Shown: positions 1-64,000, counted from the stretch's first letter. The stretch is DNA of 64,000 nucleotides from an uncultured delta proteobacterium (GCA_963839305.1 CAWIUL010000011.1:2505561-2569560); one strand, 5' to 3'. Numbers and translations are program-made. The notes: a model not told the origin generated them from the letters alone.

Positions 1-3000
1 CACGCGAACCTCCTCGAGTGGACGACGATGGGGCAAGCCGAGCGACTCGGCGGACGCGGCGTCCACCCGCGCCTCATGGGATCGGCCGCGCTCGCGTGCG
101 TGATCCTGGCCGCGGTCGCCGTGGTCGCGCCGCTCTCGTTGCCGCTCGCGGCGCCCGTGCTCGCGCTCTGGATCAGCGCGCCCGCCGTCGCCGCGTACCT
201 ACGCCGGCCAGAGAAGCGCGCGCCCCCCGAGCTCCTTCCAGCGGAGCGCAAGGAGCTGCGCGTCCTCGCGCGGCGCACGTGGCGGTTCTTCGAGACGTTC
301 GTCACCGAGGGCGATCACCACCTCCCGCCCGACAACTTCCAAGAGGATCCGCGTGGCGTCGTCGCCCACCGGACGTCGCCCACGAACATCGGCCTCTACT
401 TGCTCTCGGTCGTGTCGGCGCACGATTTCGGCTTCATCACGGTCGGAGAGCTCGTCGATCGGCTCGACAAGACGCTCGCGACCATCGAGAAGCTCGAGCG
501 ACGCGAGGGGCACATCCTCAACTGGTACGACACGCAGACGCTCGCGCCGCTCGAGCCGCAGTACGTGTCGACGGTCGACAGCGGAAATTTCGCGGCCTAC
601 CTGTGGACGCTGCGCGAGGCGTGCGAGGAGCTCGTGTTCGCGCCCATCGTGAACCGCACGCTCTTCGACGGGGCGGACGACGCGCTCGCCCTCGCGGCGG
701 ACGCGGGCGCGAACGACCTCGTCCGCGCGCTTCGCGCGACGCTCTCGGGGGCACGCAAGCGGATGACGGGAACGCTCGCCGACGTGTCTTGCTTGCGAGA
801 GGCCGAGCAGGCGCTCGCGCGCGGTGCCGCAGATTCGGAGGGCTTGCCCGAGGTCGCGCGCCACTGGCTCGAGCGCGCCGCGACGCTCTTTCGCGCCGCG
901 CTCGCCGAGGTCGAGCGCATCGACGCGAGCCGCGACGGCGTCCCGCGCGCGCGAACCCTCTCGGACGCCGCCGCGGTCGACGACGCTGCAGCCGAGCTCG
1001 TGCGCTCGCTGCGGCATGATCGGCGCGCGCGCCGGCGCCATCGCCGACGGCATGAGCTTTCGTTTCCTCTTCGACGCCGAGCGTGAGCTCTTCGCGATCG
1101 GTTACAACGCGAGCACGGCGCGGCTCGACACGTCGCACTACGATTTGCTCGCCTCCGAAGCGCGCGTCGCGAGCCTGCTCGCGATCGCGAAGGGCGACGC
1201 GCCGCAGGAGCACTGGTTTCGCATGTCGCGCCCGCGCGCGGCCGTCGGGAGCTCGAGCCGCGTTCTCCTCTCGTGGAGCGGCTCGATGTTCGAGTACCTC
1301 ATGCCACTCCTCGTGACCAAGCGCTTCGAGGGCACGCTCCTCGACGAGACGTACGAGTCCGCGGTGCGAAGGCAGAGTCGCTTGGGGAGCCGAGCGCGGC
1401 GTGCCGTGGGGCGTCTCGGAGTCCGCGTTCAACGTGATGGACCTCGCGATGACGTACCAATACCGCGCGTTCGGCGTTCCCGGGCTCGGGCTCAAGGCTG
1501 GGCTCGGTGAGGATCTCGTCATCGCGCCGTACGCGACGGCGCTCGCGGCGCTCGTCGCACCGCGCGAGCGCGGTCGCGAACTTCCGCGCGCTCGAGGCGA
1601 TGGGCGCGCTCGGTCCGTACGGCTTCTACGACGCGATCGACTGCACGACCGGCCACGTTCCGCCGGGGCGCACGAGCGTCGTCGTGAAGACGTACATGGC
1701 GCACCACGAGGGCATGACGCTCGTCGCGCTCGACAATGCGCTCCACGGGATGCCGATGCAGGCGCGCTTTCACCGCGATCTGCGCGTGAAGGCATCGGAG
1801 CTGCTCCTCGAGGAGCGCGTCCCGGTGCGCGCGCCGCTCGTACATCTTCAAGCGTCCGTCCTCCGCACGCCCGTGCTCAGCGAGCCGGAGCTCGACGTCG
1901 TGGAGCACGTGGGCCTCGGCGCGCGGCCGCTCACGCGCATGCACCTCCTCGGTCACGGCGATCTCTCGACGGCCATCACGGTGCTCGGTGAGGGCTTCAC
2001 GACCTGGCGCGACGCGGACGTCATCCGCTTTCGCGAGGACGCGGCGCTCGAGCGCTGGAGGCATCTTCGTCTACCTGCGCGAGCGCTCCGAGAACCGCGT
2101 CTGGTCCGCCGGGTACCAGCCGACGAAGGCCGAGCCGGATTTCTACGACGTCGCGTTCGCGATCGACCACGTCGCAATCTCGCGGCGCGACGGCGACATC
2201 GAGACGTGCATGGAGATCGCCGTCTCGCCAGAGCACCCGGCCGAGGTGCGTCGAGTCACGCTCACGAACCACGGGAGCGAGCCGCGCGAGATCGACGTCA
2301 CGACGTACGCGGAGGCCGTGCTCGCGCCGCGCGCGGCCGACGTCGCGCACCGCGCGTTCGCGAGCATGTTCGTCGAGACCGAGTGGCTGCCCGAGCGCGT
2401 GCACGCTCCTCGCGCGGCGAAGGCCGCGATCGAGCACGGAGCCGCCGCTCTGGGTCGTTCAGGTCCTCTGGGCGGAGCCCGAAGCGTGGTCGTCGCTCGG
2501 CACGCACGAGACCTCGCGCGCGACGTTCATCGGGCGCGGGCGGACGACGCGCGAGCCCGGCTGCGCTCCATCGCCCGCTCGAGCCGTCGAGCGGCGTGGT
2601 CCTCGATCCGGTGCTCGCGATGCGTCGCACGGTGCGCCTCGAGCCGAGCGGCCACGCGCGCTTCGCGCTGACGACGGCGCTCGCGGCGTCGCGCGACGAG
2701 GCGCTCCAGCTCGCTGAGGCGTTCTCGACGCCGCACATCGTCTCGCGCGTGTTCGAGCTCGCCTGGGCCGACGCGCGCGTCGAGCTCAAGCACCTCGGGA
2801 TCAGCGCGGCGCAGTCGCACCGGTTCCAGCGCTTTCTCTCCGCGGTGATCTTTCCGCAGCCCGCGCTCCGCGGCGCGCCCGATCGCACCGCGTTTCACGG
2901 GCGCGGAGTGAGCGGGCTTTGGGCGCACGGGCTCACGAGCGATCTGCCGATGGTCGTGGTGCGCATCGACGATCCCGATTTCGGCGAGCTACTCCGCGAG

Positions 3001-5824
3001 GTGCTCCTCGCGCACGAGTTCTGGCGCCTCAACGGCGTGTCGGTGGACGTCGTCGTGCTCAACGAGGAGCCGCCCGGCTACATGCAGCCGCAGCAGGACG
3101 CGATCCTCGCCGTGGTGCGCTCGACGCCCGCGGCGTCGCATGTCGATCAGCGCGGCGGCGTGCTGCTTCGTCGCGTGCGCGACATGACCCAAGAGGAGCT
3201 CTCGCTCCTGCTCGCGGACGCGCGCGTCGTCTTGAACGCGTCGCGCGGCTCGCTCGCGAGACAGCTCCGGCGCCTGCAAACCGAGTCGCCTGCGCTCCCG
3301 CGCGCGCTCGTGCCCACGCGCAAGCCGCTGAAGAAGCCGATGGGAGCCGCCGCGCCCGAGCTCGTCGTCAGCTGCGACAACGGCTTCGGCGGCTTCGAGA
3401 GCGATGGCCGCACGTACGCCATGACCGTGTCCGCTTCGCGTCTTCCGCCGAAGCCGTGGTCGAACGTGATCGCGAACCCGCACTTCGGAACGCTCGTCAC
3501 CGAGAGCCGGCTCGGGCTTCACCTGGTCCGGCAACAGCCAGCAGCACAGGCTCACGCCGTGGAGCAACGACCCGGTGAGCGATCCCTCCGGCGAGACGTT
3601 CTACGTGCGCGACGACGACGACGGCTCCTCGTGGTCGTTCACGCCGCTTCCGGCCGGCGGCGGCGCGGAGTTCACCGTTCGTCACGGCCAGGGGTGGTCG
3701 TCGTTCGAGCACGAGCGCGGCGACCTCGGCCACGAGATGGTGGTCTTCGTGAATGTGACCGACAGCGTGAAGACCTCGCGTCTTCGCATCACCAACCGCG
3801 GGCGGCGCGCGCGACGGCTCTCGATCTTCGGCGTCGTCGATTGGGTGCTCGGGTCGAGCCGCGAGCAAAGCCGCGTGTCCATCTTCACCGAGTGGGACGC
3901 CGCGGTCCCCGGCCTCCTCGCGCAAAACCCGCTGTCGCTCCACCCCGAGCGCCACGCGTTCTTCGCCGCGAGCAAGCCCGTCGGCAGCTTCAGCGGCGAT
4001 CGCGAGGAGGTCTACGGCGTCGCCGGATCGCGCGAGGAGCCTGCCGCCCTCGGACGCGTGGCGCTCTCGGGTCGCGTCGGCGGCGGCCTCGACCCATGCG
4101 GCGCGCTGCAGGTCCCCGTGACGATCGCGCCCGGCGAGACCGCGGACGTCGCGTTCGTGCTCGGTGAAGGCGACACGCTCGACGCCGCGCGAACGTACGC
4201 GCGCAAGCACCGCGACGCCGCAGTCGTCGAGACGTCGCTCGAGTCCGCGCGGCGCGCTTGGCGGCGCACCCTCGGCGCGCTCGTGGTCCAGACGCCAGAC
4301 CCCACGATCGACGCGCTGGTCAACCACTGGCTCCTCTACCAGGTCACGAGCTGCAGGATCTGGGGGCGCAGCGCGTTCTATCAATCGGGCGGCGCGTACG
4401 GGTTTCGCGATCAAATCCAGGACGTGCTCGCGCTCCTCCACGCGCGGCCGGAGATCGCGCGCGAGCACCTCGTGCGCGCCGCGTCGAGGCAGTTCGTCGA
4501 GGGAGACGTCCAGCACTGGTGGCACCCTGGGACGGGCGAAGGCGTCCGCACGCGCTGCTCCGACGACATGCTCTGGCTCCCCTACGCCGTCGCCGCGTAC
4601 GTGCGCGTGACCGGCGACGCGTCGATCCTCGACGAGCGCATGACGTTCCTCAAGGAGCGCACGCTCACCGCGGACGACGAGGACGTGTTCAGCTCGCCCG
4701 CGATCACGCAGGACAAGGCGACGATGTACGAGCACTGCACGCGCGCGCTCGACGTCCCACGCCTCGGCCATCATGGCCTCCCGAAGATGGGCACCGGCGA
4801 TTGGAACGACGGGATGAACCGCGTCGGTCGCGGCGGCGAGGGCGAGAGCGTTTGGCTCGCGTGGTTCCTCGCGCGCACGGCGCTCGATTTCGCGCCCGTC
4901 GCGGAGGCGCGCGGAGATCGCGAGCGCGTGGCGTGGTGCCGCAAGCTCGCCGACGACCTCGGGCGCGCGGCCGACGCGCACGCCTGGGACGGCGCGTGGT
5001 ACAGGCGAGCGTACTTCGACGACGGCACGCCGCTCGGCTCGAGCGAGAGCTTCGAGTGCACCATCGACGCGATCGCGCAGTCGTGGGCGGTGATCGCGGG
5101 CGTCGGCGATCCCGAGCGCGCGCGGAAGGCGCTCCGCGCGTCCGAGGAGCACCTCGTACGCACCGGCGACGGCCTGATGCGCCTCCTTTGGCCGCCGTTC
5201 GAGTCGTCGTATCCGGAGCCCGGCTACATTCGCGCCTACCCGAAGGGCATTCGCGAGAACGGCGGTCAATACACGCACGGCGTCCTCTGGACCGTCTACG
5301 CGCTCCTGATGCTCGGCGAGGGCGAGCGCGCGTCGCGCCTGTTTTCCCTGCTCAATCCGATCCATCACGGCGCTTCGTCGGATCTCGTCGCGCGGTATCA
5401 GGTCGAGCCATACGTCGTCGCGGCAGACGTCTACGACTCGCCCGGTCACGTCGGCCAGGGCGGATGGACCTGGTACACCGGCGCGGCGGCTTGGATGTAT
5501 CGCACGCTCGTCGAGGGGATGCTCGGCGTGAAGCGCGCGGGCGACTCGCTCACGGTGAGCCCGTGCATCGCCAAGACGTGGAGCGGGTTCGAGGTGACGA
5601 TTCGCGACGGCGACGGCGAGGTGCACGTCGTCGTCGAGAACCCGAACGGCGTCGAGCGCGGCGTCGAGCGAGTCGAGGTCGACGGCCAGCCCGCGCGCGG
5701 CGGCGCGATCACGCTCACCGGCGCGGCGGGGCGTCGCGAGGTCCGCGTCGTCATGGGCGAGCCGCGGGTCGACAAGGGTTCGGCGGTTGGTGAAAGGGAA
5801 GAACACGCGTCACGACGAGCGTGA
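1..5824 (+). pseudogene. Cyclic beta-1,2-glucan synthase (NdvB/ChvB/Cgs-like, GT84 + GH94) C-terminal ~1930 codons. The 5' end lies upstream of the window. Reading frame broken by 7 net +1 frameshifts.
   Basis: Conserved NdvB-type segments (VAHRTSPTNIGLYLLS, VLLSWSGSMFEYLMPLLV, GVPWGVSESAFNVMDLAMTYQYRAFGVPGLG, LLARRRPRSSTEPPLWVVQVLW, ATFIGRGRTTREPG, NPHFGTLVTES / GFTWSGNSQQHRLTPWSNDPVSDPSGETFYVRDDDDG, QSGGAYGFRDQIQDVLAL, MGTGDWNDGMNRVG) occur in successive frames. ORF-track pieces are 28..1086, 824..1510, 1401..1991, 1507..4167, 1988..2671 and 3575..5824. Shifts fall near 1015, 1376, 1560, 2060, 2400, 2570 and 3508, each f to f+1. Stop TGA at 5822..5824. Confidence 0.8.
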
Positions 5825-6915: not shown

Positions 6916-8682
6916 TCATGACGAAGGCGCGGCGGCCTCGGCGTGCCCGTCGTCGAGCTCTTCCTCGGGCAGTAGGGGTTCTGCGACGCGACGCTGGAGC
7001 GTATTTTGCGGCATGAAGTGCTCGATCCATTTCGCGAGCGCGGGGTCGGCGGCGAGCTCCGCGTGAAGGCGCGACCACTCTTCGTCGTCCGCGCCGCGGC
7101 CCTCGGTGGCCTCGAGGAGATCGACGAGGAACGCGTCGCGTGACGGGAGCGCCAGGGCGTCGCCGCGCGTGCGCGCGATGGCGAGCGCCGAACCGCGATC
7201 GCCCCGAACGAGCGCGAGCGCGAGGCGAACGCGAAAGTGTGCCGTTCCCGCATGAGCGTACGTGCGCGCGTTCGGCATCGAGCCGATCACGATCGTCGCT
7301 TCATCGAGCCTGCCGAGCGCCGCGAGGCAAAACGCGCGCTCGGCCGTGAGCGCCGGGCTGAGAAGATCGTAGGACATGGCGCGCATCGCGAGCGGTGAGA
7401 GCGTGTAGGCGAGTCCCTCCTCGCACCGCGCGAGCGCGCCCGTGAAGTCTCCGGAGCGCTCGGCGATTCGTGCGAGCACGAGGGCCGCCTCCGCCGAGCG
7501 CCCCTTCGCTTGGCTCTCGAGCGCGGCGAGCGCGCTTCGCTCGCCTCGTAGCGCGCCAAGCGTGGCCTCGCGGCGGACCGTGCGCTGACGTGTGGCGCGC
7601 ATCGTGTTCAGCGCGAGCAGGCCCATGAAGACTACGCAGAAGAACGGTCCTAGCACTTGCCCGGAGAACCAAAACGGATCAGCCGCGTCGACCTCGACAC
7701 GCGGCGTCGCTGCGCTTGGTGGAACAGAAGGGTTCAATACCTGCCAAATCGCGAGGAACATGAGGACGAGCGCGGCCCACAAGACTGCATACTTCCATCG
7801 CGCGCGCGCCGGCTTGATGGCCCTTGGCACCGAAGACAACGGAACTTCCGCGCTCGTGGGCTCGAATGCAGCGACCGACGATTTGTTCGTCGTCGGCGCG
7901 AGCCAGTTCGAGGCATCAGGCTCCGCGGTCTTCGCCGGGTGGCGATAAATCGTTCGCTTTCGCTCCGCCGCGAAGCGAGCGAGGCCCCGCGCGAGCGCGC
8001 GCTCACGGCCGCCGACGTCGTCCATCACCGGCGCGCAACGCTCGAGGATTTCTCGAACCTCGGGTTTGCGATCTTCGTTGGCGGCCACGATGGCGCGCGC
8101 GAGCTCGCCGCAGGCGTACGTCACCGGCGCGGCGTGGCGCACGTCGCAGGCGCGGTCCGCGTCGGCCTTTGCGCCAGCGTCATCGCGCAGGGACGCTCGC
8201 GCGAGCGCGCGGAGCGAAGACAGCCACGTGATCTGCGTGCGTGCGAGATCGCGACCAATCCATCCGAGCGACACGGCCAGTCCGTCCGTCGCGTGCTTCT
8301 CGGCGGCCTTCGCGTCACCAGCGTCCAGCGCGAGCAGCGCGCGGTGGCCTGCGACCGTACGGGCAGCGAGCCGCGAATGCGGTCTCGCGGCTGCGGCGTC
8401 GACGAGCGCCGCGGCGTCCTCGCGCTCGCCGCGGCGGCACGCGTCGAGCGCGTGATTGAGCAGCGACACCTCCAGAACGCTGCGACTCATGATCAGCGAG
8501 CTCCACACGAAGACGCTGGCGACTGCGACCATGGAGATGCCGGCCACCGGCGACAAGAACACCGCCAAAATCGCCGCGAATAAAATCACGCCGGCGGCCC
8601 ATACGATCTGAACGCGTGCGAGCTTGCGCCCCGGATGCGCCTTCGCCGCGTCGAGGACCTCTTGAACCAACCTCGCCTTCAC
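6916..8682 (-). CDS. Hypothetical polytopic membrane protein with TPR-like C-terminal region
   Basis: 588-aa ORF with several hydrophobic segments (VWAAGVILFAAILAVFL, VLWAALVLMFLAIWQVL, FFCVVFMGLLAL) and Ala/Leu-rich helical repeats. The start is uncertain because it lies only 30 nt from the divergent ligD-pol start. Confidence 0.5.
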   Translation of the reverse strand: MKARLVQEVLDAAKAHPGRKLARVQIVWAAGVILFAAILAVFLSPVAGISMVAVASVFVWSSLIMSRSVLEVSLLNHALDACRRGEREDAAALVDAAAARPHSRLAARTVAGHRALLALDAGDAKAAEKHATDGLAVSLGWIGRDLARTQITWLSSLRALARASLRDDAGAKADADRACDVRHAAPVTYACGELARAIVAANEDRKPEVREILERCAPVMDDVGGRERALARGLARFAAERKRTIYRHPAKTAEPDASNWLAPTTNKSSVAAFEPTSAEVPLSSVPRAIKPARARWKYAVLWAALVLMFLAIWQVLNPSVPPSAATPRVEVDAADPFWFSGQVLGPFFCVVFMGLLALNTMRATRQRTVRREATLGALRGERSALAALESQAKGRSAEAALVLARIAERSGDFTGALARCEEGLAYTLSPLAMRAMSYDLLSPALTAERAFCLAALGRLDEATIVIGSMPNARTYAHAGTAHFRVRLALALVRGDRGSALAIARTRGDALALPSRDAFLVDLLEATEGRGADDEEWSRLHAELAADPALAKWIEHFMPQNTLQRRVAEPLLPEEELDDGHAEAAAPSS

Positions 8683-8711
8683 TTGGCCATCATGATGCCA
8701 CGCCGCATAAG

Positions 8712-10016
8712 ATGACGCCCATGGCGGCGACCAAAGCGCCGAAGAAAGAGTCCGAGCGCGAGGTCCTCACGGTCGCGGGGCGCGAGGTCGTCGTCACGAA
8801 CCCGCGGAAGGTCTTCTTCCCCGAGACGAAGCAGACCAAGCTCGACCTCGTGCGCTACTACCTCGCCGTGGCGGACGGCGCGCTGCGCGGCGTCTACGAC
8901 CGGCCGATGGCGCTCAAGCGCTTCGTGAACGGCGCCGCAAGGCCCGCGTTCTTCCAGAAGCGCGCCCCCGAGAAGCACCCGGACTGGATCAAGACCGTGA
9001 CGCTGAGCTTTCCCTCGGGGCGCACGGCGGACGAGATCGTGATCACCGACGCCGCGCAGCTCGCGTGGATCGTGAACCTCGGCTGCATCGATTTGAACCC
9101 GCACCCGACGCGCTCGCGCGATCTCGAGCACCCCGACGAGCTCCGCGTCGATCTCGATCCGCAGCCCGGCATCGAGTGGAAGCCGATCGTGCAGGTCGCG
9201 GGCGTCGTGCGCGAGGTGCTCCACGACCTGAAGTGCGTCGGCTGGCTCAAGACGAGCGGCTCGCGCGGGATCCACGTGTACGTGCGCGTCCAGCCGAAAT
9301 GGAGCTTCAACGACGTGCGGCGCGCGGCGCTCGCGCTCGCGCGCGAGGTCGCGCGGCGCGCGCCGAAGATCGCGACGAGCAAGTGGTGGAAGGAGGAGCG
9401 CCACGGCGTCTTCCTCGACTACAACCAGAACGCGAAGGACCGCACCGTCGCGAGCGCGTACTCGGTGCGGCCGACGAAAGACGCGCGCGTCTCGATGCCG
9501 CTCCGGTGGGAAGAGCTCGCGGACTGCGAGCCCGGCGATTTCACGCTCGCGACGGTGCCCGCGCTCTTCGCGAAGCACGGCGACGCGCACGCCAAGATCG
9601 ACGAATCGCCGTGCTCGCTCGACGCGATCCTCGAGCTCGCCGCGAAGCAAGAGCACGACGAGGGGGACGCGCCTTGGCCGCCGCATTACAAGAAGCAGCC
9701 CGGCGAGAAGTCGCGCGTCCAGCCGTCGAAGTCGAAAACCGCGGCGCGCCGCGCGAAGCACCCGCTCATCGTCATCGCGCAGGCCGCTGAGAAAGACGAC
9801 GCGCTCGCGGGGCTCGAGCGATGGAAGGCGAAGCACCCGAGCGTCGCCGCGAAGCTCGCGGTGGACGACGTCCTCGTCGACGCGATGCGCGGCCGCCACA
9901 AAACGTGGACGCGCATCCGCATCAACTTGCGAAACGTGCCGGAGTCGGAGAGGCCGCCGCAGGAGACGCCGGACCCGGACTACGACGTGCGCGTCGAGTG
10001 GACGGGGCGCTCGTAG
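8712..10016 (+). CDS. Stand-alone LigD polymerase/primase domain (NHEJ primase-polymerase, PolDom) with a ~130-aa Lys-rich C-terminal extension
   Basis: MTPMAATKAPKKE start at 8712 (alternative 8721). LigD-Pol signatures FFQKRAPEKHPDWIKTV, GCIDLNPHP, ELRVDLDP, WLKTSGSRGIHVYVRV, FLDYNQNAKDRTVASAYSVR. Tail KKQPGEKSRVQPSKSKTAARRAKHP follows. Confidence 0.8.
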   Translation: MTPMAATKAPKKESEREVLTVAGREVVVTNPRKVFFPETKQTKLDLVRYYLAVADGALRGVYDRPMALKRFVNGAARPAFFQKRAPEKHPDWIKTVTLSFPSGRTADEIVITDAAQLAWIVNLGCIDLNPHPTRSRDLEHPDELRVDLDPQPGIEWKPIVQVAGVVREVLHDLKCVGWLKTSGSRGIHVYVRVQPKWSFNDVRRAALALAREVARRAPKIATSKWWKEERHGVFLDYNQNAKDRTVASAYSVRPTKDARVSMPLRWEELADCEPGDFTLATVPALFAKHGDAHAKIDESPCSLDAILELAAKQEHDEGDAPWPPHYKKQPGEKSRVQPSKSKTAARRAKHPLIVIAQAAEKDDALAGLERWKAKHPSVAAKLAVDDVLVDAMRGRHKTWTRIRINLRNVPESERPPQETPDPDYDVRVEWTGRS

Positions 10017-10019
10017 CAG

Positions 10020-10424: not shown

Positions 10425-10544
10425 CAGTGACAAACCGTGGTGTCGTGAATCACGCACGTACCTGCCGTGACGAAGCCGGAATCGGCCGTCGACCCCACGT
10501 CGAAGCAGTCGGCAAACGTGTCGGCACGGTCTCGACGAGCCAAT

Positions 10545-11618: not shown

Positions 11619-11698
11619 GGGCGAATGTTAACCGATCGTGGTGCTCTCGCGCGGATGTTCAGGCCCGTGTGGAAGGAGCGTTGATGTAATCTGCCGCG

Positions 11699-13106
11699 AT
11701 GCGCTGGCCGTTCGTCGTCTCCGCGCTCGCGTGCGTCGCGTTCGTGCCGCGATGCGACTCCAAGCCCGTCGCGCGCGTGTGCACGATTGCGCGCCCGCAG
11801 GCGGATTTCAGGCTCGCGACCGACGGCACGAATTTCAAAGACAGCCTCGGGCGCGTCGTCTTCCTTCGCGGGGTCGACGCGGGCGGCCGCAGCAAGTTCG
11901 CGCCCTACGTGCCGTTCGACTTCGGGAGCGACTTCGACGGAGCGCTTGCAAAGTACATGGATCGCGCGGCGGGCTGGGGCATCGACGTCATGCGCGTCCC
12001 GTTCACGTGGGCGGCGCTCGAGCCGACGCAGGGCCAAGACGACCCGCAGTGGCTCGCGCGCTACGACGCGATCCTCGACGCCGCGTGGGCGCGCGGCATC
12101 TGGACCGTGGTCGACTTCCACCAAGACATTTACTCCGAGGTCTATTGCGGCGACGGCTTCCCCGGGTGGACCGTGGCGAACCCGCCCGCGCCTCACCACG
12201 ACTGCCCGCAGTGGTCGTTCTCGTATTTCAACGACGCGAACGTGCAGGCCGCGTTCGACGCGTTTTGGGCGAACTCGGGGAACGTCCAGACCGAGTACCT
12301 CGCCGCGTGGGACGTGATGATCGCGCGCTACAAGGACAAGCCCGGCGTGCTCGGCTTCGAGCCGATCAACGAGCCGGACTCTGGAACGCAGCCGGACGAC
12401 ACGTTCTCCGCGTCCATCCTCACGGCGTTCTATCAGACCATGGTGCCGCACATGCGCGGGCTCGCGCCGACGTCGCTCGTGTTCGTCGATCCCACGGGCA
12501 TCGCGGGCGTCAACCTCTCGACGACGTTGCAGCGTCCGCCGGGCGACGGCGTGGTCTTCGCGCCGCACTTCTATCCGCTCGCGCCCACCCCCGAGGCGGT
12601 GCTCGACAACATGCGCAAATGGCAAGCGGTCGGCGCGCAGTGGAACGTCCCGGTGTGGGTCGGCGAGTTCGGCGCGCGCAACGACTTGCCGAGCACGCTC
12701 CCGTTCATGCAAGCGCACTTCGACGCCTTCGACGCGCTCGGCCTGAGCGGCACCGAGTGGGAGTACAGCCAGTCGGCGGAATCTGTGGAACAGCGAGTCC
12801 GATTGGCTCGTCGACGCGAACGGAAACGAGCTCCCCGTCGCGCAGGCGGTCATTCGTCCGTTCGCGCGCGCGGTCGCGGGCTCGTCGATCGCCACCGGCT
12901 TCGACACGGCGACCTCCACGTTCACGCTCGCGTACGCGCCCGCGAGCGGCGTCACCGAGGTTTCGCTCCCCGCGCGCGCGTATCCGAACGGCTACGACGT
13001 CGCGCTCACGGGCGGGTGCTACGACGTGACGACCGCGCCAGGCCAGATGCTCGTCCAGCCCGATCCGGGCGCGGCGAGCGTGTCGCTCACCGTGACGAGC
13101 CGCTAG
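11699..13106 (+). CDS. Secreted glycoside hydrolase family 5 (cellulase / endoglycosylceramidase-like), one +1 frameshift near 12778
   Basis: Signal peptide MRWPFVVSALACVAFV. GH5 motifs VVDFHQDIYSE, GFEPINEP (catalytic acid/base region), VWVGEFG (nucleophile). After ...EWEYSQSAE the protein continues in frame 0 (LWNSESDWLVDANGNELPVAQAVIRPFARAVAGSSIATGFD...) to TAG at 13104..13106. The ORF track runs on in the wrong frame to 13432. Confidence 0.7.
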
Positions 13107-31033: not shown

Positions 31034-32678
31034 TCAGTGGATGACTTCGGGTAGCACCGAAGCCGGGTTGATCATGCCGCCCACTTGCCCGCCCACGAAG
31101 TCCTTCGTGGCCGAGTAGGCACCGTCGAGGTACGCGTTCGCTTGGAACGGACCGAGCGCCTTTTCGAATCGTCTGGAACAGACCGAGGTTCTGCACCCAC
31201 TTCTTCGCCATACTGTCGAAGCTGTCGTTGATGCTCGTGTTCCACGCCCAGTTGAGGAGGTCCTTGCCCCACGAGATGCCGTGGACGCGGCGGAGGCGCG
31301 TTCGCCAGTTCATGTTGTACGCGGCGTAGTTCTCCTCCGCGGAGCCGTTGCACTTCTCCTCGTTGGTCCACGCCTCGTCGCAGTCGTAATAGAACTCGGC
31401 CTGCGCCATGTAGACCTTGAAGCCGCCGCTGAGGATGTTGCTCAGCGAGAGGCCGCCGTCCGAGTTCTTCGACGCGTCCCACTTCATGCCCGCGACGGCG
31501 ACCTTGTTCTCGGCCTGCTCCGGACGGTTGCCGCCGTACGAGATGCCCCAGACCTGCATCCAGTCGTTGCCGTTCTCGGCGTAGCCAACGACCTCTTTCG
31601 GGCCCCACTTCGGATTTCCCGAGCCGTCCTTCGCTTGCCAGATCGAATCGCTGCCGTTCTTCACGTCGTACTTCGAGTAGTCCGGGCTCGGACCGCCCAA
31701 TTGCGCAACGTGCCAAGCGTCCGCCACGAGGCTATCCATCGGAGAGAAGAGGCCCTTCGACTCCTCGTTCGGATTGCAGTACGCGTCTTCCATCTTGTCG
31801 GCGATCGCGTTCGTCAACCACTTGATGAGCGTGCCGATGACGGGGATGTTGTCGAGGAAGCCCGTGACGCCGCCGATGACGGTCTTCGCCGCTTGGTAGC
31901 AGAGGCGACCCATGTCCCTCGTCTCGACGGGGAGGCCGAGGCGCGTGTCGCGACCGGTGTACGGCTTCTGACGATCTTCGTTGGACCACTCCTTCACCGG
32001 CGCGGGCATCTTGCTCGCGGGGAAGAGCGTGGCGCTCAAACCGAGGCCGTAGCGGTGCGCGCTCCAATCCTCGTAGCGATATCCGATGAGCACGCCGAGC
32101 GCGGCTCCGGCCCAAGGCGCCGCCTCCGCAACGAGCTTCTGCGAGTCGGACAAGAGAGGCAGCGTCTTGCCCATCATCTTGTCGTAGACGTCGAGCGCCT
32201 TGCCGAGCCCGTCGTGAAGGGGCTGCATGATCGTCGCGCCCTCTTCGAAGTCGATCGAGATGAGGATCTCGCCGATTCCCGATTCGGAGAGGAGCGCGCC
32301 AACGATGTCCTTGGCGCCGTCGTGACAGTCGACGGAGTCGAAGATATCCCAGGTGAGCGGGCAGTCGCTGTCGCCGTGACGCCCAGTGACGATGAGACCC
32401 AAATCGAGAATGTTGTAGAGGAACGCCATCGCGAGATACGCGGCGACGATGAGCAACATGACGATGTTGATGAAGGCGATGAAGTTCATCCCCTTCGCCT
32501 GAACGGCGGCGGACGTGTAGGTGATCGCGTCGGTCGCTTCTTGCGAGCGATCACGCCAAATCATGGCGTCGCCCAGACCGATCAGCATCCACATCCAGCC
32601 GATCATCATGCAGGCGAAGAAAATCCCCAGCACCATGATGGCGCCACGGTTGTCACGAAGTTGGCGTGTGAGAACCAT
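31034..32678 (-). CDS. TadG-like Flp pilus assembly protein, one +1 frameshift near 31160
   Basis: N-terminus RDNRGAIMVLGIFFACMMIGWMWMLIGLGD (TadG-like). The last ~45 codons read correctly in the adjacent frame (...IRKALGPFQANAYLDGAYSATKDFVGGQVGGMINPASVLPEVIH, stop TGA at 31034..31036) if one A is removed from the cgaAAAAgg run. The track ORF ends at 31023 in the wrong frame. Confidence 0.65.
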
Positions 32679-33718: not shown

Positions 33719-33760
33719 CCTTCCTCTTTTATCACGCGGAGAGAGACCGAACGCTTCAAA

Positions 33761-33940: not shown

Positions 33941-33955
33941 CGGGTCTCTCCTATT

Positions 33956-34313: not shown

Positions 34314-36346
<2,033 letters not shown>

Positions 36347-48166: not shown

Positions 48167-49380
48167 TTCACGACGCGGCTCATTTCCTTGTCGTAGAACT
48201 TCGCGCCAGCGAGCGCGTCGGGCAGGTACGTCTCGTCGGGCACGACGTTTCCTTCGTAGTCGTGCGGGTACTTGTAGTCCTTGCCGTAGCCCTCTTCCTT
48301 CATGAGCTTCGTCGGCGCGTTTCGAAGCTTGAGCGGGACGGGGAGCGCGCCGTGCTCGTCGATCGCCGCCTTCGCGCGCTGCCACGCGTTCTTCACGGCG
48401 TTCGATTTCGGCGCGTTCGCCAGATAGAGCGCCGCGTGCGTCAGCGGGTAGAGCCCCTCCGGCATGCCGAGGCGCCGATAGGCCTGATCGGCGGCGTTCG
48501 CGACGACGAGCGCGTTCGAGTCCGCATCGCCGACGTCCTCGCTCGCGAAGATGATCATGCGCCGCATGACGAAGAGCGGGTCGTCTCCCGCTTCGAGCAT
48601 GCGCATCATCCAGTAGACCGCGGCGTCGGGATCGGAGCCGCGCATCGATTTGATGAACGCGCTGACGACGTTGTAGTGCTCGTCGCCGGTCTTGTCGTAG
48701 AGGAGCGGCGCGTGCGTGTGCGCCTCGGTGACCGCCGTGAGGTCGATGCGGCTGGCCCCGCGAGAGTGCGCGTGCTCGGCGACCATCTCGAGCGTCGTGA
48801 GCGCGCGGCGCGCGTCGCCTCGCGCGTCCTTCGCGATCGCGGCGAGCGCGTCATCGTCGCCCTCGAGGTGCATCGCGCCGAGCCCGCGCGATTCGTCCGT
48901 GAGCGCGCGACGCAAGAGCGCGACGAGGTTCTCGTCGCCGAGCGGGTCGAGGCGGAAGACCTTGCAGCGCGACAGGAGCGCCGCGTTCACGGCGAAAGAC
49001 GGGTTCTCCGTGGTCGCGCCGACGAGCACGATCGTGCCCATCTCGACGTGCGGAAGAAAAGCGTCCTGCTGCGCCTTGTTGAACCGGTGAATCTCGTCGA
49101 CGAAGACGATCGTGCGCTGGCCGCGGTCCGCGCGGCGACGGCGAGCCTCTTCGACGATCTGGCGGAGCTCGGCCAGGCTCCCGAGCACCGCGCTGAACTG
49201 CACGAGCTCGGCCTTCGTCTGACCCGCGATGACGCGCCCGAGCGACGTCTTGCCCGACCCGGGCGGTCCCCAGAGCACGAGCGACGGGACGCGGTCCTCG
49301 CGAATCGCGCGGAGCAAGAAGCGACCGGAGCCGAGCAGGTGACCCTGACCGACGTACTCTTCGATCGTGCTCGGGCGCAT
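48010..49380 (-). CDS. rarA: Replication-associated recombination protein A (RarA/MgsA AAA+ ATPase). The 3' end is uncertain.
   Basis: ARMRP-type N-terminus (ADRMRPSTIEEYVGQGHLLG). Walker A GPPGSGKTSL, Walker B IVFVDEIHRFN, sensor motifs. Start is ATG 49380 or GTG 49470. After ...AGAKFYD the in-frame tail is low-complexity and runs 157 nt antisense into the TPR gene, so the true C-terminus is probably mis-framed. Confidence 0.75.
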   Translation of the reverse strand: MRPSTIEEYVGQGHLLGSGRFLLRAIREDRVPSLVLWGPPGSGKTSLGRVIAGQTKAELVQFSAVLGSLAELRQIVEEARRRRADRGQRTIVFVDEIHRFNKAQQDAFLPHVEMGTIVLVGATTENPSFAVNAALLSRCKVFRLDPLGDENLVALLRRALTDESRGLGAMHLEGDDDALAAIAKDARGDARRALTTLEMVAEHAHSRGASRIDLTAVTEAHTHAPLLYDKTGDEHYNVVSAFIKSMRGSDPDAAVYWMMRMLEAGDDPLFVMRRMIIFASEDVGDADSNALVVANAADQAYRRLGMPEGLYPLTHAALYLANAPKSNAVKNAWQRAKAAIDEHGALPVPLKLRNAPTKLMKEEGYGKDYKYPHDYEGNVVPDETYLPDALAGAKFYDKEMSRVVNHESASSALSSSPSACESRFCVATAMPASSQSRAPGLPASASICPHIRNIGT

Positions 49381-49530
49381 GCGATCGGCGAGCGGAGGCT
49401 TCCCCGGCAAGCGGCCCGAGCGCACCGCGTGCGAAAAGAGCGTGTTTTCGTCGGTCCGGTTCGTCGCCACCGCGGGCAGTATAAGTCGGCGGATCCTCAA
49501 CGGGCTGGCGAAACGGGGCGCGTCGCCGTA

Positions 49531-50445: not shown

Positions 50446-52326
50446 GTGGAACGTCCGCGCGCGCTCGTCATTCCGTTCGGCGTTCCCGATGGGGGCAAGG
50501 GGCTCGGGCTCGGGCTCGCGTCACTCGTGCACTCGTTCGCGCGGGTCGACGACGGCGACGTCGCGCTCGCGCAGATCCGCTCGCATGGAAGCGACGGAGG
50601 CGTCACCGGTCTCGTCGAGGCGTTCGTGACGGGCGCGCAGTGGCGCGCGATGCCGGGCTCGGAGGACACGCCACCGCAGGTTCTCGTGGTGTTCACGGGA
50701 GCGTTCGAGCCGCCGCGCGACGGGCGCGGCGCGTTCTCCGTGCTCGCGTTCGACGCGAAGACGGGCGAGCCGCGCGCGAAGTTCGAGGCCGTGCTCGATC
50801 CGGATGGCGCGGGCCGCTCGATCGTCGACGCGCTCCAGTCGCTCTGCGCGCGCGTCGGCGGGGACGCGTCCGGGCTCAAGGGCATCGCGGCGCTCGGGTG
50901 GGACGCGCTCGAGAGCTTGCTCCTCGCAGAGACGTGGCGCGTTCGCGCGCTGAGCGGCGCGGAGCCGACGGGCGTCGTCGCGGCGCTCGCGCACCTCGGG
51001 CGCTCGGTGAGCGAGGCGCGTGACGCGACGTTTCCGGCGGAGCGGCTCGCTACGATGGCGCTCGAGCTCGCGCGCGACACCGCCGACACGCGGAGCGTCG
51101 AGGCCGCGCTGCGGACGCTCGTCGCGGCGAGCGTGGACGCTCCGGAGAACGCGTCGCTCGAAGCCGCCGCGGGCGCGCTCTGCTTGCGGCTCGGGCGCGC
51201 CACGGAGGCCATCGAGCACGGTGAGCGCGCGATCGAGCGCGACACCGCACGCGCGTTCTCGCACGCGCTGCTCGCGGAGGCCAAGCGCGCGAGCGGGGAC
51301 ATGGCTGGCGCGCAGCGGGCGATCGTTGCGGCCTCCGCGATCGACGAGAACGATCCGCACGTTCGAAACGAGCGCGCCGTGCTCGCGGTCGCGTCGGGCG
51401 ACGCGCTCGGCGCGCAAGCCGAGTGGCAAAAGCTCCTCACGTCGCACCCGATGCACGTCGCCGCGTTCGCGAACCTCGCGTCGCTCGCGCTCGAACGTGG
51501 CGACGCGCCGCTCGCGCAGCTCGTCGTCGATCACGCGCTCGCGGTGCGCGCGAACGCGCCCGTCGACATGCTGCGGCGCGCGGTCCAGGTCGCGCTCCAC
51601 GTCGAGCCGCAGAGCGTCGCGCGCGGCTCGCGGCTCGCGTCGATGTGTCGCGCCGTGATCGATCGCGAGCCGAACGACGCGGTGGCGACGCTGCTCCTCG
51701 CGCGCTCGCTCGCGGAGATGGGCGAGCGAGACGCGGCGTTCGAGAAGCTCGCGAGCCTCGAGCACGCGGCCAAGAACACGCTCGTCGCCGCGGAGGCCGC
51801 GCGCGCGAGGCTCCAGATCGCCGAGCCGCTCGCGGCCGCCTCGATCGACGCCACGATGCGCGCCGCGACGGAGCCCGGCGTTCAAGATCTCGACGCGGTC
51901 GCGGCGCGCGCGCGCCGGCTCGGCGAAGAGCACGACAGCTGGGTCGCGCACCTCGCGGCGGCGATGGCCGAGCGGAGGTTGGGGCGCCACACGCGCGCTC
52001 GCGTCGACGCGCTTCGAGCGCTCGCACTCGCGCCGAGCGCGCCCGCGGCGCACCTCGAGATGGCGGTGCTCATGCTCGCGACGAAGGACCCCGCCGGCGC
52101 AGCGGCGCACGCGAAGCGCGCGACCGAGCTCGATCCTGCCGCGGCGCGCGCGCACGCGGTCCTCGCCGAGGCCCTCTACGAGACGGGCGCGCAGGACGAG
52201 GCGATCGTCGCGATCGAACGGGCGCACGCGCTCGCGCCGGACGACGCACACATCGCCTCGGCGCGCGCGCGCATCAGCACCGCGAAGAAGCGCGCGAGCT
52301 GGGTCGAACGACTATTGAAGCGCTAG
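50446..52326 (+). CDS. TPR repeat protein (626 aa)
   Basis: Ala/Leu-rich 34-residue repeats through the C-terminal 450 aa (..ALLAEAKRASGDMAGAQRAIVAASAID.. and similar). Confidence 0.55.
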   Translation: MERPRALVIPFGVPDGGKGLGLGLASLVHSFARVDDGDVALAQIRSHGSDGGVTGLVEAFVTGAQWRAMPGSEDTPPQVLVVFTGAFEPPRDGRGAFSVLAFDAKTGEPRAKFEAVLDPDGAGRSIVDALQSLCARVGGDASGLKGIAALGWDALESLLLAETWRVRALSGAEPTGVVAALAHLGRSVSEARDATFPAERLATMALELARDTADTRSVEAALRTLVAASVDAPENASLEAAAGALCLRLGRATEAIEHGERAIERDTARAFSHALLAEAKRASGDMAGAQRAIVAASAIDENDPHVRNERAVLAVASGDALGAQAEWQKLLTSHPMHVAAFANLASLALERGDAPLAQLVVDHALAVRANAPVDMLRRAVQVALHVEPQSVARGSRLASMCRAVIDREPNDAVATLLLARSLAEMGERDAAFEKLASLEHAAKNTLVAAEAARARLQIAEPLAAASIDATMRAATEPGVQDLDAVAARARRLGEEHDSWVAHLAAAMAERRLGRHTRARVDALRALALAPSAPAAHLEMAVLMLATKDPAGAAAHAKRATELDPAAARAHAVLAEALYETGAQDEAIVAIERAHALAPDDAHIASARARISTAKKRASWVERLLKR

Positions 52327-53007
52327 CGCTCGCCGAAAATCGCCGTGCCCACGCGCACGATGGTCGCACCGCTCGCGATGGCAACCTCGTAGTCGTGCGT
52401 CATCCCCATCGAGAGCTCCGGGAGGCGCGTCGGGCCTCCGAGGCGCGAGCGGAGCGCCGCGAGCTCGTCGAACACCCGCTTCGCGACGTCTAGGTCCTCC
52501 GCGTCGAGCGGCGGCATCGTCATGAGGCCGCGAAGGCGCAGGCGCGCGTCGCGCTCTATCGCGTCGAGCAGCTCGGGGAGCTCCTTCGGAGCGACGCCGT
52601 GCTTGGTCGCCTCCTCGCTCAGCTTGACCTCGACGAGCACGGAGAGCGGCGCGCGGCCGGCGCTCTCCGCGCGCTTTCCGAGCTCCGCGGCGAGATCGCG
52701 CGAGTGCACCGCGTGGACGAGGTGCGCCACGCGCGCGACGTATTTCGCCTTGTTGCTCTGCAGGTGGCCGATGAAGTGCCACTCGAGATCCTTCGAAATC
52801 GGAGAGCGCCTTCGCCTTCTCGTCGAGCTCCTGCGCGTAGCTCTCGCCGAACGCGCGCTGACCCGCGGCGTACGCCTCGCGGATCGCGCCCTCGCTCTTC
52901 GTCTTCGACACGGCGACGAGCTTCACGCTCGACGGAGCGCGCCCCGCAGCCTCGGCTGCAGCGGCGATGCGCGCGCGCACGCCCTCGAGCGCCGCGGCGA
53001 TCGTCAC
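52323..53007 (-). CDS. yggS: YggS-family pyridoxal-phosphate homeostasis protein, one +1 frameshift near 52790
   Basis: The N-terminal half (GTG 53007) has LVAVSKTKSEGAIREAYAAGQRAFGE. After ...ALSDFE the true frame continues DLEWHFIGHLQSNKAKYVARVAHLVHAVHS (the 52323..52730 ORF). An extra G in gaaGGatctc breaks it. Confidence 0.75.
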
Positions 53008-54066: not shown

Positions 54067-55032
54067 TTAGCATCCGCGCCGGGTGACCGCAAGGCGGCGA
54101 CGTTTTCGGCCGATCAGGGCCAAGAAGACGAGGGCGGCAGGAACGTAGCTCGAGCGCGTGGTTCCAGCCGAGGAGCAACCGGAAGTTTGCGGGTAGGAGT
54201 CGGGGCCGCCGTCGGGCGCCGGGTTTTCGACCGCTCCGTCGGCGACGTGGGCCGAGGCCTCGGCCGAGGCGTCTTTTGTGCTCGTTCCCGCGTCTTTTGG
54301 CGGGGTTCCGGCGTCGGGCGCGGTCTGGGTGCACGTCGCGCCTTTCGCAAACCCGCCGACGGGCGACTTCACGAGGCGCTTCTCCGTGTCGGGTCCGTAG
54401 GAGCCGTCTTCGGCGATTGGGTCGTTGGGATTGTTCTCGTTCCAGAGCTTCTGGAAGGCGAGCACCGAGAGCGAGCGGAGGTCGATGCCGCCCGCGACGT
54501 AGTCGAAGTGGACGGGATCCGACGAGCCGAGCCACTTCCACCCGTGCGCGGTGAAGTACGAGTCCCACCCGGCGTTGTCCTCGACGTCGACGGCGAGGCC
54601 CGACTCGTGGTTGCTGTTTCCGGGCGAGGCCGCGAGGCCGATGCCGCACCGCCCCTGGAGGTACCACTCGTAGAGGAGGTACTGCTGCGGGAGCGTGCGG
54701 AGCGCGGAGTTGATCGTGAGCGTCGTGCCGCGCGCGGCGACGGTCTTCGCGAGCGCGCTCGCGGCGGGCGTCTGCAGATACGGAAAGACCGCGGACCCGA
54801 TCGACGTGTTCTTGATCGTCGCGATCGACGTGAGCGTACCTGGCTTGAGGCAATCGATTTCGTCGACGAGCTGCTGCGAGAGCCCCTTGACCGACGTCGT
54901 CGTGCAGCTCTGCGAGACCGCGACGGACACGGGGTCGGTCGCGGAGAGCTCCGCCTCGGACGACTCGGCGGCTTCGGGAGGAGCGGAGCACGCGAGCGCG
55001 AGGAGCGGAACGAGGGCGAGGACGCGGCGCAC
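54067..55032 (-). CDS. Peptidase M15 (D-Ala-D-Ala carboxypeptidase/VanY-like) lipoprotein with MYXO-CTERM sorting signal
   Basis: GTG at 55032 gives [15 protein letters not shown]. Zn-binding core [12 protein letters not shown]-terminus [29 protein letters not shown]. Confidence 0.7.
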
Positions 55033-55115: not shown

Positions 55116-55736
55116 TCAGGTCGCGTCGAGATCGTCGAGGTGCGCGATGTCGTTGTACGTGACGAGGTGCGATTTTCCAGTCTCGACGTCGAATCGCAGC
55201 GTCGTGAGCGCGGTGTTGTGCATTCCGGCGAGCGGCGAAATCCAGGACGGCGGGAGGCCGAGCGTCACGCAGACCGCGCTCCGCAGCGCGGCGCCGTGCG
55301 AGACGACGAGCAGGCGACGATCCACGCGCTCGCGCGCGATCCGCTCGAGCGCCGCGCTGACGCGATTCGCGAGCGCGACGTACGTCTCGCCGCCGCCGCG
55401 CGGCACGTCGAGCCCCGTGTGCCACGCCGCCCACTCCTCGGGGAAGCGCCGCGCGACCTCGTCGTACGCGAGCCCCGTCCACGCGCCCACGTCGACCTCG
55501 CGCAGCGTGCGATCGAGCTCGAGGCGCGCTCCGCTCGCACGCGCGACGATTTCCGCGGTTTCGCGCGCACGCGTGAGGTCTGATGAGACGATGAGATCGA
55601 GGCGCTCCGCGAGACGCGCGCCGAGCCGCTCGGCCTGCGCGCGCCCGCGCGCGTTGAGGCTCCCGCCGCCCTGCCCTTGAAAGACCTTCTGCGCGTTGTC
55701 GTCGGTCTCGCCGTGCCGTGCGAGGAGAAGAAGCAT
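55116..55736 (-). CDS. Histidine phosphatase family protein (phosphoglycerate-mutase-like)
   Basis: LLARHGETDDN (catalytic RHG) and LVVSHGAALR. Confidence 0.8.
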   Translation of the reverse strand: MLLLLARHGETDDNAQKVFQGQGGGSLNARGRAQAERLGARLAERLDLIVSSDLTRARETAEIVARASGARLELDRTLREVDVGAWTGLAYDEVARRFPEEWAAWHTGLDVPRGGGETYVALANRVSAALERIARERVDRRLLVVSHGAALRSAVCVTLGLPPSWISPLAGMHNTALTTLRFDVETGKSHLVTYNDIAHLDDLDAT

Positions 55737-55792
55737 GATGGGCGCGTCAGGCTACCGCCTGCCTCGCGCGTCCGCTATTCCATCACTGCATC

Positions 55793-55879
55793 GGAGGAGT
55801 GGCCGAGTGGTCTATGGCACCGGTTTTGAAAACCGGCGAGGGTGCAAGCCCTCCAAGAGTTCGAATCTCTTCTCCTCCG
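55793..55879 (+). tRNA. tRNA-Ser (anticodon TGA), type II with long variable arm
   Basis: GGAGGAG-TG-GCCGAGTGGTCTATGGC-A-CCGGT-TTTGAAA-ACCGG-CGAGGGTGCAAGCCCTCCAAG-AGTTCGAATCTCTT-CTCCTCC-G. The 3' CCA is not encoded (ccc follows). Confidence 0.85.
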
Positions 55880-55905
55880 CCCCACAACTGCACGAGCGCT
55901 GGGAC

Positions 55906-56229
55906 ATGATGGTTGCAGTTGCAACCATGTCGATCGGATTGGGAATGTTCCGGCGCGACGGGCGTTGTTCGGCCGTGGCCCAGCCATCCGTGTCCTCGTA
56001 CGAACCGGAGGTCCTCGACGTGATCCGTGAGGTCGAGCTCGAGTCGCTGCGTGTCGCGCTCCAAACCATCCCGCTCGACGACCCCGACTACGGCACGGCG
56101 TCCCGCGCGCTGATGTACCTCTCATCGTTTCGCGAAGGGGGCGCCGCCGAGGTCGCGGGCCAGTTGCGAAGCATCCTCCGCGCCATTGGCCTCACCGTCC
56201 CGATTTGCCTCCAGGGGAAGCTGCAATGA
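55906..56229 (+). CDS. Small hypothetical protein (107 aa) translationally coupled to the OmpA-like gene
   Basis: MMVAVATMSIGLGMF... to LQGKLQ. The stop overlaps the next ATG (ATGA at 56226..56229). The ORF-track version (55696 start) overlaps the tRNA and is over-extended. Confidence 0.4.
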   Translation: MMVAVATMSIGLGMFRRDGRCSAVAQPSVSSYEPEVLDVIREVELESLRVALQTIPLDDPDYGTASRALMYLSSFREGGAAEVAGQLRSILRAIGLTVPICLQGKLQ

Positions 56230-56751
56230 ACCCGCGCAAAACACTGGGTCTCGATCGTGCTCGCCATCCCGCTCGCGGCGTGTGGCGCCAACAAACCCGC
56301 CGCGACACCGACGGTCGTCACCACGTCGACCGCGAATCACACGAGCACGCGCGATCCCGTCGGGAGCAACCTCACCGTCACCGACGACATCTTTCGCCTC
56401 TGTCATCTGGACGCCGCGAGCGAGGTCGACGCGGCGCCCAAGTTCGCATTCGACGCGACGATGCTCACGCGCGCGGACGCGCAGGTCCTCGACCGGGTCG
56501 CCGCGTGCCTCACCACGGGGCCGCTCGCGAACCGGCACGTGATGCTCACGGGGCGCGCGGACCCACGCGGGACCGAGGAGTACAACATGTCGCTCGGGGC
56601 GAAGCGCGCGCACGCCGTCGCTAGCTATCTCGAGCAACACAAAGTGCCGGGCGCCGACGTCGACGAGACCTCTCGCGGAGCGCTCGACTCGAGCGGCACC
56701 GACGAGCCCACGTGGGCGAAGGATCGACGCGTCGACATCGCCCTCAGGTGA
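56226..56751 (+). CDS. OmpA/Pal-like peptidoglycan-binding lipoprotein, one +1 frameshift near 56240
   Basis: ATG 56226 MNPRK is then out of frame. Removing one A from cgcAAAAcac restores MNPRKHWVSIVLAIPLAACG (lipobox). The C-terminal OmpA_C domain has LTGRADPRGTEEYNMSLGAKRAHAVASYL...RRVDIAL. Confidence 0.7.
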
Positions 56752-63611: not shown

Positions 63612-64000
63612 TCAGGCGTGAGCGGCTACTTGTCGCTCTCGTCGCCAGAAGAGGCTCAGGATGAAGCACGCGCTCGCGACGAGGACGACGAGAGGACCAG
63701 GCTCGCGGTGAAGGACGTGCGCGGCATACGTGCCGGTCGTCGTCGCGATGACGGAGACGACGACAGCAATGCCAAGCATTCCGCTGAGGCTCAATGCGAG
63801 GCGTTTCGCCGTCGCAGCCGGGATGATCGCGAGCGACCCGATGAGCAGCACGCCGAGGTAGCGCAGTCCGAGGCCGATGGTGAGCGCGAACACGAGCAGG
63901 AAAGCAAGGTTGAGGCGCGATACGTCGATGCCCGACGTTCGCGCGATCTCCGGCGACACGAGGAGCAAGACGAGGCGGTGCCTCGCGCGCAAGACGAATC
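63612..64000 (-). CDS. Metal ABC transporter permease (ABC-3/ZnuB-MntB family), C-terminal part. The 5' end lies beyond the window.
   Basis: ...LLVFALTIGLGLRYLGVLLIGSLAIIPAATAKRLA... matches ABC-3 permease TM helices. The ORF runs off the window end. Confidence 0.65.
   Translation of the reverse strand, partial: FVLRARHRLVLLLVSPEIARTSGIDVSRLNLAFLLVFALTIGLGLRYLGVLLIGSLAIIPAATAKRLALSLSGMLGIAVVVSVIATTTGTYAAHVLHREPGPLVVLVASACFILSLFWRRERQVAAHA

Follow-up and report, generated by a model that had tools for sequence, protein, structure and literature searches.

The locus considered here raises a simple question: are the genes whose reading frames are broken in it dead in the organism, or has the assembled sequence acquired bases that the organism does not carry? 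The window, meaning the whole 64-kb stretch of DNA that was analysed, has a GC content of 60-73% (69% overall) and holds about 55-60 genes, in which third codon positions are strongly biased towards GC as in a high-GC bacterium. The best homologues of its proteins come from Polyangiaceae/Polyangia metagenome bins. All predicted proteins of the window lie on a single contig of 3,654,228 bp (NCBI and ENA) and carry no protein names, a pattern typical of unannotated long-read metagenome-assembled genomes such as those met in a scan of genome collections. An unannotated contig of 3.65 Mb thus suggests that the source is probably a long-read assembly, and likely a metagenome-assembled genome. The window encodes a LigD primase-polymerase, an ATP-dependent ligase and a PolX-PHP polymerase; the best LigD matches in the genome-collection scan are 59-71% identical, and one locus from the same scan (L005) has a gene order partly in common with the window. 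A metagenome scan with the NdvB-like gene returned relatives at no more than 72% identity.

Number and direction of the frame breaks

A codon-usage model trained on long open reading frames was used for a seven-state Viterbi segmentation of the window. In the left-to-right reading an insertion adds one to the frame index, whichever the strand. The NdvB-like gene passes through frames 0, 1, 2, 0, 1, 2, 0 and 1, the GH5 gene moves from 1 to 2, and further +1 steps occur in the TadG-like gene, in YyaL (twice) and in yggS. In all, 14 frame breaks are present in seven genes and every one is a net +1: seven in the NdvB-like gene, two in YyaL and one each in GH5, the TadG-like gene, yggS, the OmpA-like lipoprotein gene and rarA. 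The first-pass annotation had listed 13 breaks in six genes, all +1, and each of them is found again in the sequence; the fourteenth, in rarA, was absent from its list. The observation is therefore confirmed and had been slightly understated. Its estimate of about 2e-4 for the chance of 13 breaks in one direction agrees with a two-sided binomial value of 2.4e-4, and for 14 insertions out of 14 the corresponding probability is 1.2e-4 against a 50:50 expectation.

Single skipped bases were placed with a frameshift-tolerant protein-to-DNA aligner written for this analysis. Wherever homologues permit the residues to be counted, each break proves to be a single added base, not the loss of two. The Viterbi path, the Pfam domains that cover nearly all other genes and an inspection of gene ends yield no -1 event; this search has limited sensitivity for short compensated pairs and for events near gene ends. 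Pfam domains are complete in single frames for nearly all remaining genes, and in the exceptions, such as an aldo-keto reductase and a VanY-like gene, the coding signal runs unbroken in one frame to the stop. The other same-strand frame changes in the Viterbi path are ordinary gene boundaries, with a stop and a nearby start that often overlap as ATGA or GTGA.

Several candidates were rejected. The minus-strand region 17605-20347, considered as a YyaL gene with two -1 shifts, resolves by translation and Pfam into three separate intact genes for an alpha/beta hydrolase, an acyltransferase and a GT87 protein. At the minus-strand junction 22616-22623, which resembled a -1 shift, the stop of one gene overlaps the start of another as GTGA. 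Near 35456-35498 in YyaL two homologues suggested a +1 event paired with a -1 event; the pair disappears once frameshifts are penalized more heavily, and other homologues agree with the sequence read in frame. Stretches of low coding signal were likewise set aside as breaks: the tail of the VanY-like gene is in frame and resembles a MYXO-CTERM sorting signal, and both 7532-8395, within the open reading frame 6916..8682, and the tails at 29110-29300 are in frame and plausible.

Table 1. Broken genes of the window and the placement of the extra base in each (contexts in the sense of the gene; extra base in brackets).
Feature	Position	Strand	Remarks
NdvB-like cyclic beta-1,2-glucan synthase gene	1..5824	+	5' end cut by window start; eight frame segments, seven extra bases
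NdvB-like extra base 1	1013..1015	+	CTGCGG[C]ATG; deletion of G1013, G1014 or C1015 equal in score
NdvB-like extra base 2	1375..1377	+	CAG[A]GTC; outside homopolymer
NdvB-like extra base 3	1565..1566	+	CCGCGC[G]AGC; outside homopolymer
NdvB-like extra base 4	2053..2053	+	CTCGAG[C]GCT; outside homopolymer
NdvB-like extra base 5	2398..2399	+	GAGCGC[G]TGC; outside homopolymer
NdvB-like extra base 6	2555..2558	+	CGCGAG[C]CCG
NdvB-like extra base 7	3504..3508	+	ACCGAG[A]GCCGGC
GH5 glycoside hydrolase (endoglycoceramidase-like) gene	11699..13106	+	One extra base
GH5 extra base	12775..12790	+	Somewhere within GCGGAATCTGTGG
TadG-like gene, Tad/Flp pilus cluster	31034..32678	-	Last 43 codons shifted
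TadG-like extra base	31159..31168	-	ATT[C]GAAAAGG, A4 run included
YyaL (DUF255 thioredoxin-domain protein) gene	34314..36346	-	Two extra bases about 90 nt apart
YyaL extra base a	35761..35770	-	TCGCGC[G]CGATTC; frameshift-aware alignment, 10 homologues
YyaL extra base b	35667..35689	-	Best placement 35688-35689; frameshift-aware alignment, 10 homologues
rarA (replication-associated recombination protein A)	48180..49500	-	Assigned by Pfam; one extra base just 5' of stop
rarA extra base	48183..48189	-	GACAAG[G]AAATGA; best placement 48186-48187
yggS (PLP homeostasis protein) gene	52323..53007	-	One extra base
yggS extra base	52788..52796	-	TTCGAAGGATCTC
OmpA-family (Pal-like) lipoprotein gene	56226..56751	+	OmpA domain; start and first five codons in another frame
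OmpA-like extra A	56238..56241	+	A4 run, CGCAAAACAC

The broken genes

The NdvB-like gene, with Pfam GH94 and glucoamylase domains, is identified as a GH94-type cyclic beta-1,2-glucan synthase by glucoamylase, GH94 supersandwich and GH94 catalytic domains in that order; such a protein has about 2800 aa, and its N-terminal part lies outside the window. The repaired protein of 1932 aa is 71-72% identical to intact homologues of 2811-2832 aa, in alignments that span 99-100% of its length. Against three of these (P0001-3, 71-72%) the skipped bases fall at 1015, 1376, 1566, 2053, 2399, 2556 and 3505-3508, and no alignment gap opens at any junction, which identifies each as a gain of one base as opposed to a loss of two. 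A tblastn search with intact homologues confirms the pieces, the stretch 2053-2556 included. The fourth, fifth and sixth extra bases sum to one codon, whereby the original frame is regained and stays open; the open reading frame 1507..4167 conceals about 500 nt, or some 170 residues, that are out of frame.

In the GH5 gene the Cellulase domain lies in frame +1 and the GH5_C domain in frame +2, and the repaired protein aligns across the junction to residues 43-462 of the endoglycoceramidase 5CCU. All six TadG-like homologues tested end in ...P..IH*, an ending that the window regains in the next frame at the same stop. YyaL is identified by the Pfam domain Thioredox_DsbH and by its homologues. 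In yggS, positions 71-218 of the Ala_racemase_N profile fall in the downstream frame; the repaired protein aligns to residues 4-229 of E. coli YggS (1W8G), and this full-length alignment, with the AVSKTK lysine motif and the EWHFIG.LQSNK motif, identifies it as YggS/PLPBP.

The break in rarA affects the end of the gene. Relatives at 84-97% identity end in FYDKKK* or FYEKK*, and the window reads TTC TAC GAC AAG GAA ATG AGC, with the TGA out of frame by one base; the extra base has thus removed the stop. The open reading frame thereby gains 58 codons, reaching 48010 within the convergent TPR gene, and the overlapping tail of about 150 nt has the composition of a shadow frame. On the contig of the relative, rarA and the convergent TPR gene are 1 nt apart. 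At the opposite end of a gene, one A fewer in CGCAAAACAC puts the ATG of the OmpA-like gene, with its plausible ribosome-binding site, in phase with the OmpA frame. The repaired N-terminus, MNPRKHWVSIVLAIPLAAC, is a standard lipoprotein signal in which the lipobox LAAC is restored. Placed by signal-peptide logic and not by a homologue, this break is the least secure of the 13 listed earlier.

Context and spacing of the extra bases

Short homopolymers had been named in the first-pass annotation as the setting of several breaks, a remark that needs correction. Among the 11 sites where homologues permit single-base repairs to be scored, seven are best repaired by removing a base outside any run. 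Homopolymers are confined to the A4 runs in the TadG-like and OmpA-like genes and to GG pairs at yggS, rarA and the first NdvB-like site, and the extra bases outside homopolymers typically stand in CGCG-like contexts. The window contains 88 A/T runs of at least four bases, 267 G/C runs of at least four and 34 G/C runs of at least five; two of the A/T runs are struck and none of the 267 G/C runs. A concentration in homopolymers, which would be expected of a consensus artefact, is thus not seen. Once multiple tests are corrected for, the surroundings of the 14 sites show no significant enrichment of any k-mer or methylation-like motif. Their spacing is very uneven, with seven of the 14 inside 2.5 kb (P = 5.5e-5 under a uniform model).

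These properties bear on programmed +1 recoding, in which frameshifting ribosomes or slippage during transcription would carry expression of the genes across the shifts. Every shift does call for the same +1 correction, and in the +1 frameshifting of prfB (release factor 2) such a correction likewise restores the protein. The window differs from prfB in that its shifts are unconserved, no slippery sequence or other motif is common to the sites, and one gene has many sites. No aligned homologue is shifted, whether for the NdvB-like gene (three at 71-72% identity and one at 93%), the TadG-like gene (six), YyaL (ten) or rarA (eight). The A runs, at three to four bases, fall short of the poly-A tracts on which slippage is known, and we know of no system with seven recoding sites in one gene. 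Recoding of the broken genes is effectively excluded.

A particular form of consensus error may be considered here, in which both alleles of a single-nucleotide variant between two co-assembled strains would be retained side by side and so add one base; extra bases would then be commonest in strain-variable stretches. Such an event would account for the exclusive occurrence of insertions, for contexts outside homopolymers (GAG[A]GCC, CAG[A]GTC, CGC[G]) and for the clustering. Read by eye, the extra base and its neighbour would give synonymous or conservative codons at most sites, and a population 93-97% identical exists in at least one soil metagenome. The synonymous pattern is however expected by chance in about two thirds of cases, as the skipped base is set at codon boundaries by construction, and the A4-run sites of the TadG-like and OmpA-like genes resemble ordinary homopolymer over-calls. 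As a sub-case of an artefact, the retention of both alleles is quite unlikely to be the specific explanation.

Probable intactness of the broken genes

Close relatives bear on whether these genes are dead. Relatives 83-97% identical read unbroken through the three sites that they cover, namely NdvB-like 3505, the TadG-like gene and rarA; those at 93% and 97% come from the short-read JGI metagenome sample 3300075153 and the one at 83% from another JGI sample. In the first of them (P0243, 93% identical, 903/969 residues without gaps) TE|AGSG is continuous across the seventh NdvB-like site. The second (P0395, 97% identical, 420/434), from the same sample, has the rarA stop codon, and the third (P0122, 83% identical) has an intact TadG-like gene. 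No gaps separate the window from the 93% relative in the NdvB-like gene or from the 97% relative in rarA.

The broken genes themselves lack other signs of decay: they show no in-frame stops, no larger lesions and no relaxed constraint, and codon usage stays typical of coding sequence in every shifted segment. Constraint was measured in the NdvB-like gene. Its repaired frames contain no in-frame stop, and the repaired protein keeps 388 of the 390 residues that are at least 97% invariant across 113 full-length homologues. The losses amount to 0/46 before the first shift, 1/180 in the stretch hit seven times and 1/162 after it, while intact homologues, each left out in turn, miss 0-11 such residues.

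The alternative is that the lineage has fixed real one-base insertions that inactivated seven genes, which would then be recent pseudogenes. The NdvB-like gene and YyaL would be hit repeatedly since dead genes keep gathering mutations, and the clustering (seven breaks in one gene, two in another) does have this multi-hit look; frameshift pseudogenes also have disrupted frames and several lesions per gene. The sites moreover lie mostly outside homopolymers and typical errors of high-GC long-read assemblies are deletions, so that the best-described technical signatures are unmatched (PMC8574707, PMC12007338). The window nevertheless differs from frameshift pseudogenes in showing no relaxed constraint, stops, larger deletions or mixed directions. 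Pseudogenes in bacteria tend to decay by deletion, and most spontaneous mutations are of other kinds than single-base indels; here a mixture of insertions, deletions and larger lesions is not seen, only one-base insertions, 14 out of 14. The seven-hit NdvB-like gene loses invariant residues no more than functional homologues do and has no larger deletions or gaps against the 93% relative. That 2.5 kb should take up seven insertions, yet no more than about one excess replacement at its 180 invariant positions, would mean an indel-to-substitution ratio far above normal. A gene dead for long enough to gather seven independent insertions should lose conserved residues and show deletions, neither of which is seen, and this is the main argument for an artefact. 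The uniform direction of the breaks and the fraction of genes affected point the same way: seven broken genes among about 55-60, the conserved yggS and rarA among them, is unusual for a free-living, large-genome organism of the Polyangia type. Genuine recent pseudogenes are accordingly unlikely.

A related possibility is that the insertions are real and so recent that substitutions have yet to accumulate. In such a burst single bases would have been inserted, always as +1 and for the most part outside homopolymers, and about one gene in eight inactivated. A repair or polymerase activity prone to insertion might be the cause, and the LigD, ligase and PolX-PHP proteins encoded in the window could be considered in this respect. 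Such a burst is very unlikely.

The reading preferred here, with a probability of roughly 0.8, is that consensus errors in the assembly, and not mutations in the organism, account for the 14 extra bases. The pieces of the open reading frames, interrupted by single-base indels, jointly match full-length homologues. In the cell the seven genes most likely remain whole, and protein predictions that split or truncate them would be wrong. The first-pass annotation had come to a similar view, and its suggestion that the genes are probably intact stands with the uniform direction, the absence of relaxed constraint and the intact relatives.

Origin of the probable artefact

The mechanism that it proposed, insertion-biased error in an unpolished long-read assembly, fares less well. 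The unannotated 3.65-Mb contig is consistent with it; the mostly non-homopolymer contexts, the clustering and the published errors, which are mainly deletions, are not. In PacBio-only assemblies of high-GC genomes the residual errors are G/C deletions in homopolymers, and multiple errors can land in one gene of a long-read assembly (PMC8574707). Indels of Nanopore assemblies are mostly false deletions (PMC12007338). The 14 insertions out of 14 do not match the direction of either published profile.

Indel errors of long-read-only assemblies, as addressed by the IDEEL test, proovframe, Kastor and ARAMIS, are otherwise a close parallel: single-base indels split or truncate conserved open reading frames, several may occur per gene, and removal of one base restores the full-length alignment to homologues. 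The effect is stronger at low coverage, and below about 40-fold coverage long-read-only assemblies retain gene-breaking indels (PMC9262707). Large catalogues of Nanopore metagenome-assembled genomes have received a single polishing round, with the long reads themselves (PMC12313526). The window differs in having insertions only, mostly outside homopolymers, in a 69% GC sequence and at a very uneven density.

Position, direction and single-base nature of the breaks, the lack of any other decay and the intactness of close relatives can be read off the sequences; that the cause is technical, and which step brought in the extra bases, is inferred. Single spurious bases may have survived, or been added, during consensus building or polishing in places, and would be densest in one 2.5-kb stretch of the NdvB-like gene, where locally low coverage or a mixture of strains could be responsible. 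The clustering, the non-homopolymer contexts and the contrary published profiles together call for a local cause. Candidates are low coverage, a stretch that depends on few reads, over-insertion by the polisher, or two strain alleles set side by side.

Consequences for annotation

Biologically the locus is ordinary, and its value is that of a flag for annotation quality. If the extra bases are artefacts, calls of pseudogenes or 'fragments' for this genome would be wrong. The insertion-only, mostly non-homopolymer signature merits reporting to the builders of the assembly because it is unlike the error profiles for which polishing tools are tuned. Two cases show how such errors may escape notice. 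Since the insertions at 2053, 2399 and 2556 sum to one codon, a gene caller can return one long open reading frame that hides the out-of-frame stretch. In rarA, an error near the stop can append a false tail of 58 residues that a scan for frame changes passes over. A public protein collection already contains broken pieces from the window as separate entries, among them a TadG-like protein of 551 aa whose tail would be false, YyaL as proteins of 443 and 234 aa, a 135-aa piece of YggS and a 164-aa piece of the OmpA-like lipoprotein.

Concealed frameshifts and stored products

The open reading frame at 1507-4167 on the forward strand (886 aa) remains open across the NdvB-like insertions at 2053, 2399 and 2556, since together these add three bases and thereby leave it unbroken. 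A gene caller working on this frame could output a protein with about 170 wrong central residues in which the break would be invisible. Frameshifted products of this contig are already present as separate entries in a public protein collection (P0121 and P0515-P0518), where one entry is a TadG-like protein carrying a false tail, two are the halves of YyaL, and the other two are truncated versions of YggS and the OmpA-like protein.

A short-read metagenome, JGI sample 3300075153, holds a population with 93-97% protein identity to the organism of the window, represented by contigs of 3332 and 4014 bp. The C-terminal part of the NdvB-like gene and rarA are both intact in this population, and the genes flanking rarA are arranged as in the window.

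Genomic setting of the affected genes

The GH5 gene lies amid genes for a LigD protein, a ligase and a PolX polymerase (8616-14839), which look like an end-joining repair cluster. The three also stay together in L005, a locus on one 7-Mb MAG contig ('uncultured delta proteobacterium'), at about 69% identity. The TadG-like gene is a member of a Tad/Flp-type pilus cluster, and on a contig from a JGI metagenome relative Flp and a prepilin peptidase are found upstream of the TadG-like gene. Pfam searches matched zero domains in the TadG-like family.

Features of the window
Feature	Position	Strand	Score against tRNA model (bits)
588-aa ORF	6916-8682	-	
LigD primase-polymerase domain protein	8616-10016	+	
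ATP-dependent DNA ligase	10467-11618	-	
PolX-PHP polymerase	13103-14839	-	
tRNA-Arg(CCG)	21050-21126	-	67
Tad/Flp-type pilus cluster	29197-33960	-	
TadE-like protein, Tad/Flp cluster	30550-31026	-	
TadE-like ORF, second of Tad/Flp cluster	32688-33059	-	
Small Flp-like ORF, Tad/Flp cluster	~33789-33944	-	
VanY-like peptidase	54067-55000	-	
tRNA-Ser(TGA)	55792-55882	+	58.6

Other features

Both RNA genes of the window score well against the tRNA model and therefore no indel is evident in either. An ORF at 55696-56229, upstream of the OmpA-like gene, overlaps tRNA-Ser and is not a gene.

The 588-aa ORF matched nothing in Pfam. Its product has the look of a membrane protein carrying TPR-like repeats, and the gene may be specific to the lineage or a recent acquisition; the middle of the ORF (7532-8395), where the codon-usage signal is weak, keeps a single frame throughout. 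Judged from its sequence, the C-terminal end of the VanY-like peptidase appears to resemble a MYXO-CTERM-type sorting signal, a tail that would account for the weak coding signal at the 3′ end of the gene.
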